A stretch of DNA of 64,000 nucleotides from assembly GCA_963712745.1 (NCBI GenBank), contig CAVQJC010000015.1:32001-96000 (forward strand). Reading direction: 5' to 3'. Every line of letters begins with the position of its first letter. Position 1 is the stretch's first letter. The position numbers were made by a program, and so were the translations under genes. Shown piece by piece: positions 1 to 5,494 of the stretch. Below the pieces are notes generated by a model that ran no database searches, was not told where the DNA came from, and saw nothing but the letters and a program-made list of their open reading frames with translations. Origin of the DNA: an uncultured Chloroflexia bacterium. Its GTDB lineage: Bacteria; Chloroflexota; Limnocylindria; Limnocylindrales; CSP1-4.

Positions 1-924
1 GAAGTCGTCGATGCCGGTGACGGTGTCGGCGCCGCTGAGGAAGCTGAGCAGGCCGGGGATAGCCAGGCCGATGGTCTCGCCCGAGGCCTCGTCGACCCAG
101 CCGAAGGCATAGGCAGGGGCGCTCTCCTCTGTCTGCCAGATGCCCTCCATCGCGGCCAGCTTGGTGGGCTGGTTCTCGGCCACGCTGCGGGCCGACTCGG
201 GCCCGAAGACGAAGGCGTTGGCCAGGGCGAAGACGATGAAGCACGGGAGCGCGATCGAGAGGGCGGCCCTGCCCAGATCGGCGAACTCGCGCTTCCTGAG
301 GATGTACCAGGCGCCGACGCTGGCCACGAAGGCGGCCCCCGCGGTCCAGGAGGCGAAGAACACGTGCAGGATCCGCGGCATGAACGAGGGTGTGAACACG
401 ACGTCCCAGAAGTCGGTCATGACCGCTCGCGCGGGCGCCGGTTCCGCCTGTAGCTCGAAGCCGGCCGGCGTCTGCATCCACGAGTTGGCCATCACGATCC
501 AGAGAGCGCTGAAGTGGGCCCCGAGCACGACCATGAGGCTGGCGGTGAACCACATCCTGGGGCCCAGGCGGTTGCCACCGAAGAGCATCAGGCCCAGGAA
601 GCCGCCCTCGAGGAAGAAGGCGAAGACGCCTTCAGCGGCGAGCAGCGAGCCGAAGATGTTGCCCACGAACCGGGAGTAGTTGGCCCAGTTCATGCCGAAC
701 TCGAACTCCATGACGACGCCGGTGGCGACGCCCATGGCGAACACGATTCCGTAGATCTTGACCCAGAAGAACGACAGTCGGCGCCACTTGGCATCCTTCG
801 TCCGCAGGTACATGCCACTGACGAAGAGCAGCATCAGGCCTAGCCCCATCGAAAGGGGCGGGAAGATGAAGTGATAGCTGGCGGTCAGCGTGAACTGCAG
901 TCTCGCCAGCAGTTCGGCGTCCAA
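1..924 (-). CDS. cydA: Cytochrome bd ubiquinol oxidase subunit I (5' part; runs off the window start)
   Basis: Manual translation from TTG at 924: MDAELLARLQFTLTASYHFIFPPLSMGLG...FAMGVATGVVMEFEFGMNWANYSRFVGNIFGSLLAAEGVFAFFLE..., later QPTKLAAMEG; these are typical CydA motifs. Confidence 0.95.
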   Translation of the reverse strand, partial: MDAELLARLQFTLTASYHFIFPPLSMGLGLMLLFVSGMYLRTKDAKWRRLSFFWVKIYGIVFAMGVATGVVMEFEFGMNWANYSRFVGNIFGSLLAAEGVFAFFLEGGFLGLMLFGGNRLGPRMWFTASLMVVLGAHFSALWIVMANSWMQTPAGFELQAEPAPARAVMTDFWDVVFTPSFMPRILHVFFASWTAGAAFVASVGAWYILRKREFADLGRAALSIALPCFIVFALANAFVFGPESARSVAENQPTKLAAMEGIWQTEESAPAYAFGWVDEASGETIGLAIPGLLSFLSGADTVTGIDDF

Positions 925-1173
925 GCTCGTCCCCCCGGTACGACTGTGGGCCCACGTCGGTGCCGCCGCGGTCTCGCTCCGCTGGGGCCGCCGTGCGCAC
1001 TGCTCGGGCCATCGTGCCCTCAGTCCGGGCCGGGCGGGGTGTGCCGTTCGGTCCATCCGAGGACGGGCCGTTGGTCGACGGTCGCCTCAAGCGCCCTTGA
1101 CGTTCAGGGCGTGTGGCGGCGGCTCTGTGCGTCTTGCACCAGCAGCTTGACCGAGCTGTCTTGGACGACCTCC

Positions 1174-1268
1174 TTGCACCGCCAGCGGCTTTGCACCACC
1201 AGCGGCTTTGCACCACCAGCGGCTTTGCACCACCAGCGGCTTTGCACCACCAGCGGCTTGCACCACCA
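1174..1268. repeat. Tandem ~17-bp repeat (TTGCACCACCAGCGGCT), about 5-6 copies; more copies at 1360-1409
   Basis: Read directly from the sequence. Confidence 0.9.
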
Positions 1269-1588
1269 GCGGCTTTGCACCGCGTGCACGAGAGCGACAT
1301 CACGGGCCACCTGCTCCAGCGGCCTTGCACCGCGTGCACGAGAGCGACACGACCGGCCGGCGGCTTTGCACCGCCAGCGGCTCTGCACCACCGGCGGCTT
1401 GCACCACCGGCGGCTTTGCACCGCGTGCACGAGAGCGACATCACGGGCCACCTGCTCCAGCGGCTTTGCACCGCGTGCACGAGAGCGACACGACCGGCCG
1501 GCGGCTTTGCACCGCGTGCACGAGAGCGACAACCTGCACCAGCGGCTTTGCACCGCGTGCACGAGAGCGACATCACGGGCCACCTGCT
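1269..1588. repeat. Array of six 31-bp repeats GCGGCTTTGCACCGCGTGCACGAGAGCGACA (palindromic core TGCAC-CGC-GTGCA) with short recurrent linkers
   Basis: Copies at 1269, 1319 (one mismatch), 1410, 1460, 1501 and 1542. Linkers: TCACGGGCCACCTGCTCCA (19 nt, twice plus a partial), CGACCGGCCG (10 nt, twice), ACCTGCACCA (10 nt). Confidence 0.92.
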
Positions 1589-1628
1589 GGCCGTTGGTTT
1601 GCACCGGGTGAACACCAACGGCAAGGGC

Positions 1629-1745
1629 GTGCACCCTGTGCAAGCAGCGGTGCTAGAGGGCGGCGGTTCGGAGACACCGGTGCACCCCGTGCAAGCAGAG
1701 TGGTGCACCCGGTGCAGACAAGACCGTGCACCCCGTGCAAGCAGA
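1629..1745. repeat. Four oppositely oriented palindromic units GTGCACCnnGTGCA(AGCAG)
   Basis: gtgcaccctgtgcaagcag, gtgcaccccgtgcaagcag (twice) and gtgcacccggtgcagac; these resemble the reverse complement of the array core TTGCACCGCGTGCAC. Confidence 0.8.
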
Positions 1746-1784
1746 CGGACAAGCAGGCTGCCAGCCCGACGCGGTCTAGGCCAT

Positions 1785-1828
1785 TCCCGACCGTCGGGCA
1801 GAGGCAGACGATCCCGACCGTCGGGCAG
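1785..1828. promoter_or_regulatory. Two copies of TCCCGACCGTCGGGCAG with palindrome CCCGAC-C-GTCGGG; candidate operator
   Basis: Copies at 1785-1801 and 1812-1828, just upstream of the XRE-HTH gene; operator function is inferred. Confidence 0.5.
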
Positions 1829-1883
1829 CGCCAGCTAAGAGCGTGTGCAAAGCGGACGAAGCGCAACTCGCCAGCATGGAGGC

Positions 1884-2537
1884 ATGGCAGGCCTAGAACG
1901 ACGAGACGACCAAGCCAGACGAAGAGCTCATCGAATGCTGGAGGAGCTGGGGCGGGATATCCGCCAGGCGCGCCTCAACCACGACTTGAGCCAGGCGACG
2001 TGTGGGAGTCGCATCGGGATATCGGGATCGACCTGGAGCCGGATGGAGCGCGGGCTCTTTCCGCGCGCATCGCTCATCCGACTGCTGCGAGCCGCTGCGG
2101 TCGTGGGGCTGGACCTCGGTGTGCGCGCCTATCCGGGGGGTGAGGCCGTCCGCGACAAGGCCCACCTCGGTCTGCTCGAGAAACTGAGGACACGCCTTGG
2201 GCCGAGCCTCAGATGGCGCACGGAGGTGCCTCTTCCAAACCCGGGGGACCGTCGAGCGTGGGACGCGCGCATCGACTCGGCCCAGGTACGCATCGGCGTC
2301 GAGGCAGAGACCCGGGCCCGCGACTCGCAGGACCTTCAGCGACGCGTCTCGCTCAAGCGACGGGACGGGGGCGTTGACCACGTCATCCTCCTGCTGGCTG
2401 ACACTCGCCACAACCGACGCTTCCTCCGTGTCGCCGGGCCCGGTTTCCACGCGGACTTCCCGGTTCCGGGCGCCGTCGCACTCGAGCGGCTTGCAGCGGG
2501 CGCGGATCCGGGTGGCAGCGCGATCATCCTCATCTGA
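1884..2537 (+). CDS. XRE-family HTH fused to a PD-(D/E)xK-like (restriction-endonuclease-fold) domain
   Basis: N-terminus LGRDIRQARLNHDLSQATCGSRIGISGSTWSRMERG is an XRE HTH; C-terminus WRTEVPL...RRAWDARI...IGVEAETR has an E...D...ExE acidic motif; GGAGG precedes the ATG. Confidence 0.75.
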   Translation: MAGLERRDDQARRRAHRMLEELGRDIRQARLNHDLSQATCGSRIGISGSTWSRMERGLFPRASLIRLLRAAAVVGLDLGVRAYPGGEAVRDKAHLGLLEKLRTRLGPSLRWRTEVPLPNPGDRRAWDARIDSAQVRIGVEAETRARDSQDLQRRVSLKRRDGGVDHVILLLADTRHNRRFLRVAGPGFHADFPVPGAVALERLAAGADPGGSAIILI

Positions 2538-2559
2538 TGCTCCTGCGGGTGCCGGGACC

Positions 2560-2712
2560 GACTTGCATGACAAGCACCAGCCCGACCCAGGAACGCCCGA
2601 AGTGAGTGTGGATCCGCGTCAGATGCACGGCGGTGACGCGGATCGGCGCGAGGTGCACAAGGACTGTCGCCGACGGCGTCTTGTGGCTGAACTCGTGCAC
2701 CTCGTGCAAGTC
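2560..2712. repeat. Structured element: 8-bp terminal inverted repeat GACTTGCA/TGCAAGTC, internal hairpins and an inverted copy of the upstream array repeat
   Basis: 11-bp stem GATCCGCGTCA (2611-2621) / TGACGCGGATC (2634-2644); CTCGTGCACCTCGTGCAA at 2692-2709 matches the reverse complement of the array repeat at 15/18. Confidence 0.65.
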
Positions 2713-2761
2713 AGGGAGGGAGTGATGCCGCCGATGGGCCGGGTGGCCACGCGCTGGCTCT

Positions 2762-2982
2762 GGCGGGGCACTGCGAGCCGGCTTCAGTCGACGGCGGGGC
2801 ACTGCGCGAGCCGGCGCTGGCCGAAGGTGGGCACGGCGGGGCACTGCGAGCCGGCTTCAGTCGACGGCGGGGCACTGCGGCAGCCGGCGCTAGCCGAAGG
2901 TGGGCACGGCGGGGCACTGCGAGCCGGCTCAGTCGACGGCGCGGGCACGGCGGCAGTCGGCGGCGCTAGCCGAAGGTGGCCG
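2762..2982. repeat. Higher-order tandem repeat of ~73 bp, 3 copies (core GGCGGGGCACTGCG..AGCCGGC with alternating short and long linkers)
   Basis: Units start at about 2762, 2835 and 2908; the third is degenerate and overlaps the feoC stop codon. Confidence 0.85.
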
Positions 2983-3244
2983 CGGCGGCAGATGAGGCGG
3001 TCGCGTTCGGGGACAGGGCGTAGGTCACTGCCACGCCGTCGTTCATGAGGAAGCAGCCACCCCTGACCGGGCAGGCCGTACAGCCGGCGTCGTCGAACAC
3101 GATGGCCCGCAGCCGCCCGCGCGCCACGAGCGTCTCGAGCATGCCCTCGAGCGCCGATTCGTCGATGCCCAGGTCGCGCGAGAGGTCGGCCAGGCACATC
3201 GGCTTGCCGGCTTCGCGGATGGCGGCGAGGATCGCCGACAGCAT
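2966..3244 (-). CDS. feoC: FeoC-like winged-helix protein with Cys motif
   Basis: MLSAILAAIREAGKPMCLADLSRDLGIDESALEGMLETLVARGRL...CTACPVRGGC; ATG overlaps the feoB stop (TGATG). Confidence 0.75.
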   Translation of the reverse strand: MLSAILAAIREAGKPMCLADLSRDLGIDESALEGMLETLVARGRLRAIVFDDAGCTACPVRGGCFLMNDGVAVTYALSPNATASSAAAATFG

Positions 3245-4954
3245 CAGCCATACCCCAGGAAGGTGCCCACCTGGAAGACCACCACCGCGAGTAGCCAGGC
3301 GAGGCCGAACTGGTACAGGCCGGAGAAGGCCGCCCAACGCCAGCCGAGCTCGCTCTTGATGGCCGAGAGCGTGGCCAGGCAGGGCGTGTAGATGAGCACG
3401 AACATGACGAAGGCCAGGCCCGCCAGCGGTGTGAAGTTCGAGGCCAGCGCGTTGCTCAGGGCCGTGTCCTGCGGTCGGGCCTGCTGCTCGGGCATGAGGT
3501 CCACGCCGGGCACGATGCTCAACGTCGAGCGCAGGGCGCCATCGGCCGCCGCCACGAGGGACGAGCCGATCTCGCGGATGTCCTCGCCGACCGACGGCAC
3601 GGACCCTGACGCCTGGGGCTCGGCCGCCTCGTCACCGAGATAGGTCTGCGCCATCGTGGCCACCACGACCTCCTTGGCGATGAAGCCTGTCACGAGCGCG
3701 CCAGATGCCTCCCATGTGCCGAATCCCGCCGGCTCGAAGATGGGCGCAGCAGCCGAGCTGACCTGCCCGAAGTAGCTGTCGCGCTCGATCCTCCACGCCC
3801 CAAGGCAGGCTCATCAGGAACCACAGGCCGACGGAGATGGCGAAGATGACGGTGCCGGCCTTGACCACGAACTCCCTGGTCTTCTGCCACGTGTGCGTCG
3901 TCAGCGCCTTCATCGTGGGCATGCGGTAGGGCGGCAGCTCCAGGGCGAAGACCGAGTCGTCGCGCTCGCGCAGGATCGTGCGTGAGAGCACGATGGCCAC
4001 GAGCCCGGCGATGAGGATGCCGACCACGTAGAGCCCCGTGATGACGGTCGCCGCTGCGGCCCCGAAGAAGGCCAGGCCGAACACGACATAGACCGGCAGC
4101 CGGGCCGAACACGACATCAGCGGCACCAGCAGGCTGGTCATGACACGCTGCGTGCGGTTCTCCAGGGTGCGCGTGGCGTAGATCGCTGGCACAGCGCAGC
4201 CGAACCCCAGCACCATGGGGATGAAGGACTTGCCGTGGAGCCCGGTGAAGCGCATGACGCGGTCCATCACGAAGGCCACTCGGGCCATGTAACCGCTGTC
4301 CTCGAGCAGGGTCAGGAACATGTACAGCACGATGAGCCCGGGTACGAACACGAGCACCGCGCCGACGCCCGCGATGACACCGTCGACCACGAGCGAGACG
4401 AACCATTCGGGCGCGTCGAACAAGGCCAGGATGCCGACGGCCCAGCGCGTGACCGGGCCGCCGATGACCGCGTCGACCCAGTCGAGGAAGTAGGCCGACA
4501 CTTCGACCACGAGCTTGAACACGACGAACATCACCGCGAAGAAGATGGGCAGTCCCAGCCAGCGGTTCGTGAGCACTCGGTCGAGCCGGTCGGTGACGGT
4601 GTAGCGGGACACGGCCGAGGTGTCCAACACCTCGAGTGCGACCCCGTGGACGTAGCCGTAGCGGGCATCGGCGATGGCGATGTCGGAGGTGTCGCCGTGC
4701 ATCGACTCGATCCGGCTGCGCCCTGCAGCGGCGGCTGCCAACAGGGTCTCGCCGACCTCGCTGGCGGCCACGCGCTCGATGAGGTCGGCCTCGCCTTCGA
4801 GCAGCTTGATGGCCAGCCAGCGGGCGGGGTAGGCCTGCGTCAGCTCAGGGTGCGCGCCGATGTGTTCGATGAGCGCACCGATCTCGGACTCCACCTCGGA
4901 GCCGTAGTCGATGCGGAAGGGCGGGCGGTCGATGGCCCCCGTGAACGTGGTCAT
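3244..4954 (-). CDS. feoB: Ferrous iron transport protein B, helical and membrane part (apparent +1 frameshift near 3787)
   Basis: Motifs LEDSGYMARVAFVMDR, GKSFIPMVLGFGC, MSCSARLPVY and ELPPYRMP; continues in ORF 3244..3693 with AKEVVV and YTPC. Confidence 0.92.
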
Positions 4955-4963
4955 GCCCGAGGT

Positions 4964-5494
4964 CTAGGCCACGAGCCGCAGCCGGGCACGAGAGGGATCG
5001 ACCAGGCCCATGGCGGCCTCGAGCAGGCCCTCGAGACCCTGTGCCCGGTGGCCGACCGTTTCGACGATGGGCGCGCGGCCGAACAACGCCGAGAGCCTCT
5101 CCCGGTCGATCTTGATGCCCTGCGCACGCGCGCTGTCACTGACGTTGAGCGCCAGCACCATGGGTACGCCCAGCTCCGCCAGCTGCGCCGTCAGGTAGAG
5201 GTTGCGCTCGAGGTTCGTGGCGTCGACGACATCGATGACCGCGTCGGCCTCACCGGTGAGCAGGTAGTCGCGGGCGATGACCTCTTCGGGGGAGAGGGCG
5301 CTCAGGCTGTAGGTCCCGGGCAGGTCGACCAGGCGACCCACGAGGTCACCATGGCGGAAGGTGCCCTCCATCTTGGCCACGGTCTTGCCGGGCCAGTTGC
5401 CCACGTGGTGCCGCGAGCCGGTGAGTGCGTTGAAGATGCTGGTCTTGCCGGCGTTGGGGTTACCGGCCAGGGCCAGCGTGAGGAGCCCGCTCAC
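4964..5494 (-). CDS. feoB: FeoB small GTPase (G) domain as a separate ORF
   Basis: G motifs GNPNAGKT, NWPGKTV and DLPGTYSL; DATNLERNLYL. Confidence 0.92.
   Translation of the reverse strand: MSGLLTLALAGNPNAGKTSIFNALTGSRHHVGNWPGKTVAKMEGTFRHGDLVGRLVDLPGTYSLSALSPEEVIARDYLLTGEADAVIDVVDATNLERNLYLTAQLAELGVPMVLALNVSDSARAQGIKIDRERLSALFGRAPIVETVGHRAQGLEGLLEAAMGLVDPSRARLRLVA

Follow-up and report, generated by a model that had tools for sequence, protein, structure and literature searches.

The 64,000-nucleotide stretch of DNA from an uncultured Chloroflexia bacterium that we analyzed (hereafter the window) carries, between cydA and a feoC-like gene, a gene whose 217-residue product joins an XRE-family helix-turn-helix (HTH) domain to a C-terminal domain with the predicted fold of a PD-(D/E)xK nuclease. 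This gene is bracketed by copies of a 15-bp palindrome, GTGCA-N5-TGCAC (= TGCAC-N3-GTGCA), that is also dispersed in intergenic regions of the same genome, and several of its homologs are flanked by palindromes of other sequences. The layout recalls that of repetitive extragenic palindromes (REPs) and their transposases, to which we tentatively liken it, with an enzyme of a different kind.

The gene and its palindromes in the window

The locus comprises the features below. Tandem arrays of the window were called with Tandem Repeats Finder (TRF).

1..1056, reverse strand: 5′ part of cydA (cytochrome bd oxidase subunit I), the divergent neighbor; Pfam Cyt_bd_oxida_I, 365.7 bits from residue 50 of the open reading frame (ORF)
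1134..1281, forward strand: run of TTGCACC half-sites, including a 17-bp tandem array at 1174–1281 (6.4 copies); motif scan and TRF
1219..1588, forward strand: tandem array with 141-bp and 41-bp periods and six full units; TRF and motif scan
1574..1638, no strand assigned: inverted repeat with 32-nt arms (1574–1605 and 1607–1638), 72% complementary, centered on 1606; inverted-repeat search
1629..1745, forward strand: four units of opposite orientation, GTGCAC-NNN-GTGCA(A/G)-GCAGA, with palindromes starting at 1630, 1681, 1704, and 1727; motif scan and TRF
1785..1826, forward strand: TCCCGACCGTCGGGC in duplicate, at −99 and −72 relative to the start codon; near-matches to TCCCG-N5-CGGGA
1884..2537, forward strand: gene for the 217-residue protein, XRE-HTH (residues 21–81) plus predicted PD-(D/E)xK fold (residues ~91–217); Pfam, model, and homologs
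2611..2644, forward strand: perfect 11-nt inverted repeat, GATCCGCGTCA / TGACGCGGATC, with a 12-nt loop, 74 bp past the stop codon; inverted-repeat search
2686..2711, forward strand: downstream unit GCTGAACTCG-TGCAC-CTC-GTGCA-AG, oriented as the units at 1629–1745; motif scan
2762..2988, forward strand: second tandem array, with 3.1 copies of a 73-bp unit and no TGCAC motif; TRF
2966..3247, reverse strand: feoC-like gene, the convergent neighbor; Pfam FeoC, 27.4 bits, and HTH_IclR, 28.4 bits

Searching the 64-kb window for the palindrome as TGCACNNNGTGCA (TGCAC-N3-GTGCA) gave 11 matches, where shuffled sequence predicts 0.11. Every one falls between 1276 and 2708, ten of them 5′ of the gene and one 3′ (2696–2708), in agreement with a preliminary description of this DNA that had placed the TGCAC palindromes around the gene and seen no other cluster in the window. 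The half-site TTGCACC has 17 matches in the window (5.0 expected), of which 16 lie at 1134–1605. The six units on the left, which read TTGCAC-CGC-GTGCAC-GAGAGCGAC and span 1275–1572, have palindromes starting at 1276, 1326, 1417, 1467, 1508, and 1549. Unit orientation switches at the inverted repeat centered on 1606, as had been proposed for a hairpin near 1590–1621; the core of this repeat is a 9-bp stem formed by 1590–1598 and 1614–1622. A 23-bp tandem array (1678–1745, TRF) lies within the right-hand units, and the downstream unit fits the tagged form GTCG(A/G)ACT(C/G)G-TGCAC-N3-GTGCA-AGC of other loci. The two TCCCGACCGTCGGGC copies approach TCCCG-N5-CGGGA, which constitutes a second palindrome family of the source genome (G000; 84.5% complete; C-numbers denote its contigs).

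The start codon at 1884 is supported by the conservation of the first 17 residues among homologs. Past the stop codon, the inverted repeat at 2611–2644 may be a terminator hairpin; it has no T tract and was not called by the terminator scan. The second array described downstream of the gene does exist, but it holds no TGCAC motif: GCTAGCCGAAGGTGG occurs in it three times (2816, 2889, and 2965), with the last codons and stop of feoC in each unit. Because its units repeat the end of feoC, the array must have formed by tandem duplication in place.

The two domains of the protein

The N-terminal part of the protein belongs to the XRE family. Pfam HTH_31 (PF13560) matches residues 21–81 with 34.2 bits against a cut-off of 27, and residues 10–84 form a five-helix HTH fold whose closest structures are ClgR, C.BclI, C.AhdI, and HipB (Z 9–10). 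Residues ~90–217, in contrast, gave no match in Pfam, NCBIfam, PADLOC, PHROGs, or the sequences of the PDB. NCBIfam returned only HTH entries for the 217-residue protein, all far below their own cut-offs, and the PDB sequences matched it through the HTH alone, a mevalonate kinase at E 0.85 being a chance match. A profile of the C-terminal domain matched no PDB sequence at E values up to 10. In the ESM Atlas, residues 88–217 matched only Chloroflexota clusters, and a Replic_Relax row at 0.76 was too low to follow.

The AlphaFold2 models have pLDDT values of 83.3 for the whole protein and 90.7 for the C-terminal domain alone, and the modeled secondary structure (helix 92–102; strands 110–112, 128–131, and 136–142; helix 148–162; strand 166–171) forms an α-β-β-β-α-β core. 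A structure search with the C-terminal model listed 50 matches, nearly all of them PD-(D/E)xK nucleases. The best is AF1548 (1y88; Z 8.0, root-mean-square deviation 3.6, 97 aligned residues), followed by NucS (2vld, Z 7.5), an XisH-like protein (2okf, Z 7.3), and Hjc (1gef, Z 6.9), with restriction enzymes, Card1/Can2, and Vsr lower down. The XisH-like structure also matches the whole-protein model at Z 8.2, a structural likeness alone. Foldseek returned the same kinds of protein for the domain with weak E-values (best 0.011, EcoT38I), BamHI being among them at 21–22% identity. On these models, the C-terminal domain is predicted to have the PD-(D/E)xK nuclease fold, as the preliminary description had suspected from an E..D..ExE pattern.

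The residues of that pattern, E114, D127, and E140-x-E142, are invariant in 35/35 aligned homologs. Across the family, E114, R124, W126, Q149, R153, K158, and D161 are found in 84/84 members and D122, D127, E140, E142, and D147 in 83/84 each, and the conserved positions of the C-terminal domain outdo the HTH in conservation. The putative active site consists of E114, D127, E140, E142, Q149, and K158. In D127...E140-A-E142, a glutamate replaces the lysine of the (D/E)-x-K motif, and the invariant K158 sits on the next helix. An ExE variant of the PD-(D/E)xK catalytic motif is known, and the active site of BamHI is E77/D94/E111/E113. The domain resembles BamHI and the small nucleases Hjc, NucS, and XisH-like proteins in its modeled α-β-β-β-α-β fold, in which the first helix bears an acidic residue, strand 2 opens with an aspartate, and strand 3 carries E-x-E; it differs from them in that its sequence matches no solved chain or Pfam family. 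Since the acidic site is invariant, the modeled nuclease fold may be active.

A homodimer was predicted with an ipSAE of 0.58 (best control 0.00), a partner pLDDT of at least 82, and agreement between runs on at least 65% of contacts; the ipSAE mark that we used is attained by 20/30 solved homodimers and 1/23 monomers. The N-terminal helix and the last part of the HTH domain make up the predicted interface. This pass may reflect likeness to solved structures, because XRE dimers are common among those, and we regard the protein as probably dimeric on the strength of the model.

A paralog family and its repeats

A word-based search found 789 relatives, mostly of 217 residues and many on contigs of 1–3 kb, and 1111 representative clusters emerged from an exhaustive profile search with the C-terminal domain. 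Among the top 150 clusters, the domain mostly occupies residues ~91–217 of a protein of ~217 residues, and this constant position argues that the fusion of HTH and nuclease fold is fixed. We analyzed homolog loci L001–L080, the best 80 of 107 stretches encoding a relative in species-representative genomes, nearly all of which are titled as Limnocylindria-type Chloroflexota. The titles of two contigs differ, L033 being labeled Verrucomicrobiia and L037 Candidatus Sulfotelmatobacter; both are probably mis-binned, since they fall inside Chloroflexota clades and L033 has the usual sigma-factor neighbor. The gene is present in 82 of 151 sampled genomes of the class, with 1–11 matches each. By host family, it occurs in 39/44 genomes of f1, 42/50 of f4, 0/6 of f2, 0/49 of f3, and 0/1 of f5, in a tally that leaves the source genome out of f1 and includes G098. 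The paralog family is restricted to two families of Limnocylindria-type Chloroflexota, at 0–11 copies per genome. Four paralogs reside in the source genome, with 100, 67, 62, and 44% identity to the window protein, the window gene itself being the C15 copy.

The genomic context of the gene recurs. According to Pfam matches of neighbors at L001–L070 (118 proteins), cydA lies upstream and feoC downstream in the window and at L002, L008, L011, L017, and L018; a convergent primary-sigma-like gene (rpoD) lies downstream at 27 loci; and an M16 peptidase context is shared by L001, L005, L022, and, by reading of the DNA, the C2 paralog of the source genome. Other recurring contexts are an amidohydrolase pair, a GAF-PAS kinase with a transglutaminase, and BipA; rhodanese is also among the neighbors. 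In a quick maximum-likelihood tree of 79 rows (L012, L063, L071, L072, and L079 were dropped for internal stops in a crude extraction), the synteny groups need 8 label changes against 20.1 in shuffles. Because the tree follows the synteny groups, the paralogs are old and vertically inherited at fixed loci, and the idea of a lone selfish insertion between cydA and feoC does not hold.

The gene can nonetheless be absent from this interval, and the empty sites that had been thought worth seeking in relatives were found. Both flanks lie on a single contig in 23 congeners. In 11 of these, 136–584 bp separate the cydA and feoC matches without any match to the gene; one more has a 1.7-kb gap with no gene match; two (G173 and G178) keep the first ~44 codons, followed by a deletion; and nine have a DNA match to the gene (two of them partial). 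Where the gene is present, its DNA identity is 68–75%, compared with 81–89% for cydA and 77–85% on the feoC side. The gene is dispensable and often lost or truncated. In the two truncated cases (L198 on G173:C24 and L199 on G178:C2), the deletion reaches nearly to feoC and two TCCCG-type units are kept upstream, with a perfect TCCCG-N5-CGGGA unit ~55–70 bp before the ATG of the truncated gene. Another congener, G194, has ten family matches, several fragmentary or with stop codons, suggesting ongoing paralog decay.

Repeats accumulate around family members. Tandem repeats cover ~12% of the 500 bp after the gene and 4–7% before it, against 0.5–3.6% at a distance of 1–3 kb. Among intergenic regions of the 80 homolog loci, delimited with codon-usage gene calls (six loci without a call were dropped), 35/70 downstream and 17/69 upstream regions contain tandem repeats, as opposed to 20/212 other regions of the same loci. 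The source genome has 268 tandem arrays, and 185/3065 of its intergenic regions (~20% of those of 400–1000 bp) carry a repeat; five of the eight regions that flank its four paralogs hold repeats that cover 173–483 bp. At least three perfect sites of one palindrome occur in the flanks of 11/64 homolog loci and of 24/1033 source-genome genes. With a mismatch-tolerant scan, the corresponding fractions are 33/64 and 98/1033 for at least three sites, 20/64 and 44/1033 for at least four, and 13/64 and 20/1033 for at least five. At the threshold of five, nine homolog loci have sites on both sides, as do two source-genome genes, both of which are paralogs. Similarly, only three of 488 source-genome genes with both flanks of at least 150 bp share a palindrome family across the two flanks, and the C15 and C2 paralogs are two of the three. 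Flanking palindromes are therefore a trait of the family in both kinds of scan, not a peculiarity of the window. Proximal sites ~55–100 bp before the start codon recur across several loci. The orientation of flanking units is inconsistent: they are inverted with tags distal at L008 and L057, and direct at L080 and in the window.

The palindrome differs from one family member to another. TCCCG-N5-CGGGA flanks the C2 paralog, L008, L015, L016, and L022; TGCCG-N5-CGGCA flanks L011 and L073; TTGCC-N5-GGCAA flanks L031; ACCCA-N5-TGGGT flanks L057 and L061; GCACG-N5-CGTGC flanks L080; and GTGCG-N5-CGCAC flanks L045. Residue 46, directly before the recognition helix, is lysine or arginine in 10/84 proteins, and at least two perfect TCCCG-N5-CGGGA sites lie within 600 bp of 5/10 of these, compared with 0/74 of the others. 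The five TCCCG-flanked proteins occupy two separate places in the tree and three synteny groups. A lysine-type copy in G160, from a later sample, has eight perfect TCCCG-N5-CGGGA sites. Another locus, L223 (G196:C14:153041-156688), encodes the helix GLGQSSISRAELA (GLGQSSI) and has 12 ACCCG-N5-CGGGT sites within 600 bp of the gene, a type that resembles the ACCCA type of L057, whose helix is GLSQSTI. The expectation that palindromes co-vary with the protein stands in part, in that paralogs differ and their palindromes partly follow residue 46, with an exception in G179 that is taken up below. That the palindrome type follows an HTH residue points to direct recognition. Given the association, the specificity within one genome, and the partial covariation with the HTH, we consider it quite likely that the protein directly recognizes its own palindromes.

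These palindromes are dispersed beyond the genes. The source genome has 31 perfect TGCAC-N3-GTGCA sites, 24 of them intergenic, and 25/30 of its TCCCG-N5-CGGGA sites are intergenic as well, when ~15% of the genome is intergenic. On this genome-wide map, the clustering of the TGCAC motif at the window locus (11 sites) is upheld, but not its uniqueness, because 20 of the 31 sites lie elsewhere. Further TGCAC clusters are found at C20:550092-550247, C17:107852-107903, C17:281793-281813, and C20:632082-632282. The second largest cluster, C11:335413-335766, is a 92-bp unit repeated 3.8 times with eight sites, the motif cluster itself being placed at C11:335413-335743; the divergent intergenic region that holds it is 1 kb long and adjoins no family gene. 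Allowing up to one mismatch and requiring at least two sites per intergenic region, we counted seven TGCAC-type and 16 TCCCG-type regions in the source genome; of the latter, 7/16 are between convergent genes, against 111/512 long intergenic regions. Outside the palindrome, repeat units differ between loci, save for a one-sided extension bearing a GTCG-N5 tag: GTCGCGTTG before TCCCG, GTCG(A/G)ACT(C/G)G before TGCAC, and, in another genome, GTCGGACTG before ACCCA. Inverted pairs and triplets of units are frequent, with recurring spacings of 82 and 51 bp in the source genome and of 72–82 and 61–73 bp in the L080 genome; extensions and spacings were read by eye from printed sequences. The palindrome flanking the gene occurs 35 times in the L057 genome and 45 times in the L080 genome, against two for the control pattern in each, with many copies in regularly spaced triplets. 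A generic detector, GTCG followed by N5 and any 5-N5-5 palindrome, was dropped as noisy (244 genome hits, 51 of them intergenic, against 23–39 for control tags).

Clusters also turn over between relatives. The ~400-bp cluster at C15:146853-147353 is inserted between a stop codon and a conserved hairpin, where the gap between the flanks is 0–28 bp in G173 and G178, 122 bp in G189, and ~430 bp in the source genome; the single junction that was aligned shows no target-site duplication. At C5:43270-43627, the source genome has 374 bp and three congeners 100–136 bp, and the units match other places in G173 at 91–96%. Both source-genome clusters examined are thus missing from the orthologous sites of congeners, as expected of mobile repeats. 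In three congeners whose DNA matches part of the array, TGCAC-N3-GTGCA is at background (counts of 8/12 in G193, 8/8 in G194, and 4/5 in G170), so the TGCAC family appears to have been amplified only in the source genome among those examined. The hexamer GTGCAC is mildly under-represented in the source genome (980 against 1439 expected from base composition), despite its clustering at the loci treated here.

Explanations of the gene–palindrome association

The closest known counterpart is the REPtron. According to Di Nocera et al. (2013; PMC3733652), REPtrons are genes for REP-associated tyrosine transposases (RAYTs) flanked by REP/REPIN sequences; a REP is an imperfect hairpin of 20–40 nt with a terminal GTAG (or CGTC) tag and a high copy number; and CGTC-tagged REPs, with stems of 8–9 bp, have no dedicated transposase associated with them. 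The system described here shares with REPtrons a gene bracketed by its own palindromic repeat, which is also dispersed in intergenic clusters of the same genome, often as inverted pairs; repeat families specific to species or paralog; vertical inheritance of the gene; and several gene–repeat pairs per genome. It differs in its enzyme, an XRE-HTH joined to a predicted PD-(D/E)xK fold that matches HTH families only and not HUH/Y1; in its units, 15-bp palindromes that have 5-bp arms and are preceded by GTCG-N5, rather than GTAG/CGTC-tagged hairpins of 20–40 nt; in its copy numbers, tens rather than hundreds, with up to 11 paralogs per genome; and in being known from sequence alone. With the CGTC-tagged REPs it shares a tagged palindrome family without a tyrosine transposase, and it differs from them in tag, stem (5 bp here), host phyla, and the presence of a candidate dedicated protein. 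The layout is that of a REPtron in that dispersed, tagged units turn over between species and bracket the gene. The earlier suggestion of a REP-like system with a different enzyme fits these data: the motif is scattered in the manner of a REP family, and the source genome yielded no HUH/RAYT gene, with no match to Y1_Tnp (PF01797) at 84.5% completeness while control genomes gave matches.

We therefore lean, with some reservation, toward a REP/RAYT-like arrangement with a non-HUH enzyme, in which the palindromes are bound by a dimer of the protein, with possible cutting nearby by its nuclease domain. In such a mechanism, the HTH dimer would bind its own palindrome, as the association and covariation suggest, and sites ~50–100 bp before the start codon and 40–90 bp after the stop would allow autoregulation. 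More speculatively, the nuclease domain might nick or cut at or beside bound units, and repair of the breaks might duplicate units locally in tandem and now and then copy them to intergenic sites elsewhere. Cutting and spreading of units by the protein are inferences. A more ambitious version holds that a family of HTH-guided PD-(D/E)xK endonucleases co-evolves with the GTCG-N5-15-mers and drives both array amplification and intergenic spread, as an analogue of RAYT/REPIN of different chemistry with several specificity pairs per genome; this we consider possible yet doubtful. Among the papers searched, none described such an HTH-nuclease/palindrome system.

Several observations weigh against a protein that makes its own repeats. 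Structural Z-scores of 7–8 are only moderate by the calibration of the tool, although the match list is uniform. Recognizable flanking palindromes are confined to 13 to 33 of 64 members, depending on the threshold, about a fifth to a half, so that half or more have no clear ones, and the C1 paralog of the source genome has none. G179 has a lysine-type copy (GKSASSW) without TCCCG sites, and lysine or arginine at residue 46 is thus not sufficient for such sites. Tandem-array density does not track gene copies in six sampled genomes: gene-free genomes have 18 arrays in 400 kb (G124), 26 in 308 kb (G016), and 7 in 400 kb (G018, family f3), and gene-bearing ones have 10 (G052, six copies), 13 (G070, seven copies), and 5 (G008, five copies) per 400 kb. 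Palindrome clusters in the same samples (300–400 kb) show no clear split by presence of the gene. Across 49 genomes of the genus, counts of TCCCG-N5-CGGGA range from 1 to 55 (controls 2–21), and a check of four high-count and five low-count congeners for lysine- or arginine-type copies had a mixed outcome. G160 fits, and none of the five low-count genomes has a TCCCG-flanked copy; in G153, with 55 sites against 4 for the control, none of the candidates is a family member (57/57 scored, 93% completeness), G192 has 47 sites with three partial matches, one weak match (E 3.6e-11), and no full-length copy, and G196 has 48 sites and no lysine- or arginine-type copy. The TCCCG palindrome can hence abound without an intact cognate gene. 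The sites of G153 are mostly single, with spacers such as GGTGAT or GGCGTT, and may represent a different palindrome family or a relic population. Copy numbers are in the tens per genome (30–50 perfect sites), not the hundreds typical of REPs, and the units, as near-perfect double-strand palindromes whose arms measure 5 bp, make poor hairpins and would be as fitting for repressor operators as for a mobile element. Of the proposed recognition, cutting, or propagation of the palindromes, recognition is favored by the association, cutting and propagation stay hypothetical, and two results, on tandem-array density and on TCCCG-rich congeners, argue against repeats that simply depend on the gene.

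The serious rival, somewhat unlikely in our estimate, is an ordinary autoregulated XRE transcription factor whose operators multiplied through tandem duplication, a common process in this lineage; the nuclease fold would then be a sensor or oligomerization module, and the other clusters a small regulon or incidental. XRE repressors and the C proteins of restriction-modification systems share the HTH_31 domain and bind palindromic operators as dimers in autoregulation. The HTH_31 match above its cut-off, the predicted homodimer, the suitability of 5-N5-5 double-strand palindromes for HTH dimers, and the recurrence of sites ~55–100 bp before the start codon all agree with such a protein, and tandem repeats are widespread in the source genome and occur in gene-free relatives. 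The protein differs from these repressors in its permanent fusion to a nuclease fold and in having its sites in arrays and to either side of the gene. Against the rival, conservation is highest at the putative catalytic residues (83–84 of 84 members), which would be unusual for a degenerate domain; the excess of TCCCG-type regions between convergent genes (7/16, baseline 111/512) is in places where no promoter is expected; and an asymmetric GTCG-N5 tag, inverted pairs of conserved spacing, and the presence or absence of clusters between congeners as blocks of 260–430 bp are further points against it. Were the protein a repressor only, the family would still be a clear case of operator–protein covariation among paralogs. 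An unlikely possibility is that the tagged palindromes are an independent family, resembling REPs or miniature inverted-repeat transposable elements (MITEs), moved by another function, which pile up near these genes or which the protein restrains as a host factor. It would account for the palindrome-rich genomes without an intact cognate gene (G153, G192, and G196), for the TCCCG units kept beside a ~44-codon remnant in G173 and G178, where the gene was truncated and units stayed, and for the 11 of 23 congeners with a short cydA–feoC interval; yet no transposase candidate was found, Y1_Tnp being absent from the source genome, the association on both sides is specific to the family in one genome (two of three genes among 488), and the palindrome type follows the HTH residue.

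The multiplicity of the gene (0–11 per genome), the inverted units with distal tags that bracket it at L008 and L057, and the frequent fragments and pseudogenes might instead betray an insertion-sequence family that is ancient and no longer mobile, with the gene as its transposase, decayed terminal inverted repeats as the flanking units, and its MITE derivatives as the other clusters. We judge this improbable, since paralogs within one genome are only 44–67% identical, loci are conserved across genera, the one insertion examined has no target-site duplication, and units are direct at L080 and in the window; on the same grounds, an insertion sequence/MITE pair was rejected as a class. That the gene merely happens to lie within long, repeat-prone intergenic regions is very improbable. 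Such regions do carry a tandem repeat in ~20% of cases at 400–1000 bp, but at matched length 5/8 of paralog-flanking regions do so; the excess around homologs, downstream (35/70) and upstream (17/69) against 20/212 elsewhere, and the counts of palindromes in the flanks of homolog loci and of source-genome genes also disfavor chance. Type II restriction-modification was rejected as well: the neighbors are cydA and feoC, no methyltransferase recurs at homolog loci (a distant one was not sought), and the host genome is enriched in the sites instead of avoiding them.

Mycobacterial interspersed repetitive units (MIRUs) are intergenic minisatellites of the variable-number tandem-repeat (VNTR) class, and we know of no cognate protein for them. 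Like MIRU/VNTR loci, the arrays described here are intergenic and tandem, with units of tens of bases at many loci that vary between relatives; they differ in carrying a palindrome linked to the HTH of the adjoining gene. To our knowledge, HUH transposases (RAYTs) are the only dedicated partners of bacterial REP-type repeats. If the REP/RAYT-like arrangement is correct, the partnership of REP-type repeats and enzymes would have arisen more than once, the intergenic minisatellites of an abundant uncultured soil and freshwater lineage would have a candidate mechanism, and the family would be a naturally occurring collection of small HTH-nuclease proteins that differ in their 15-bp specificity. 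Because the presumed target is written beside each gene, specificity can be tested directly in vitro. Tagged palindrome classes such as CGTC REPs have no known enzyme (PMC3733652).

A few minor observations concern the surroundings of the gene. No described family of RNA genes was recognized at 900–3100: an Rfam scan at E up to 1 gave only chance-level matches to mir-124 and Twister-sister, at 19.7 bits each and far below gathering thresholds. A promoter and terminator scan of the same interval found zero promoter-like sites and one terminator-like site, not above shuffles. Tandem arrays of the source genome concentrate in ~70 kb of contig C5 (~207,000–276,000), which holds ~25 of the 138 arrays of at least 100 bp. 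The true start of cydA is probably near 924, where a codon-usage gene call ends. Beyond feoC, the FeoB gene (3244–5494, reverse strand) consists of three consecutive ORFs, at 4964–5494 (G domain), 3632–4954, and 3244–3693 (overlapping the previous one), which indicates frameshifts, a pseudogene, or assembly indels.

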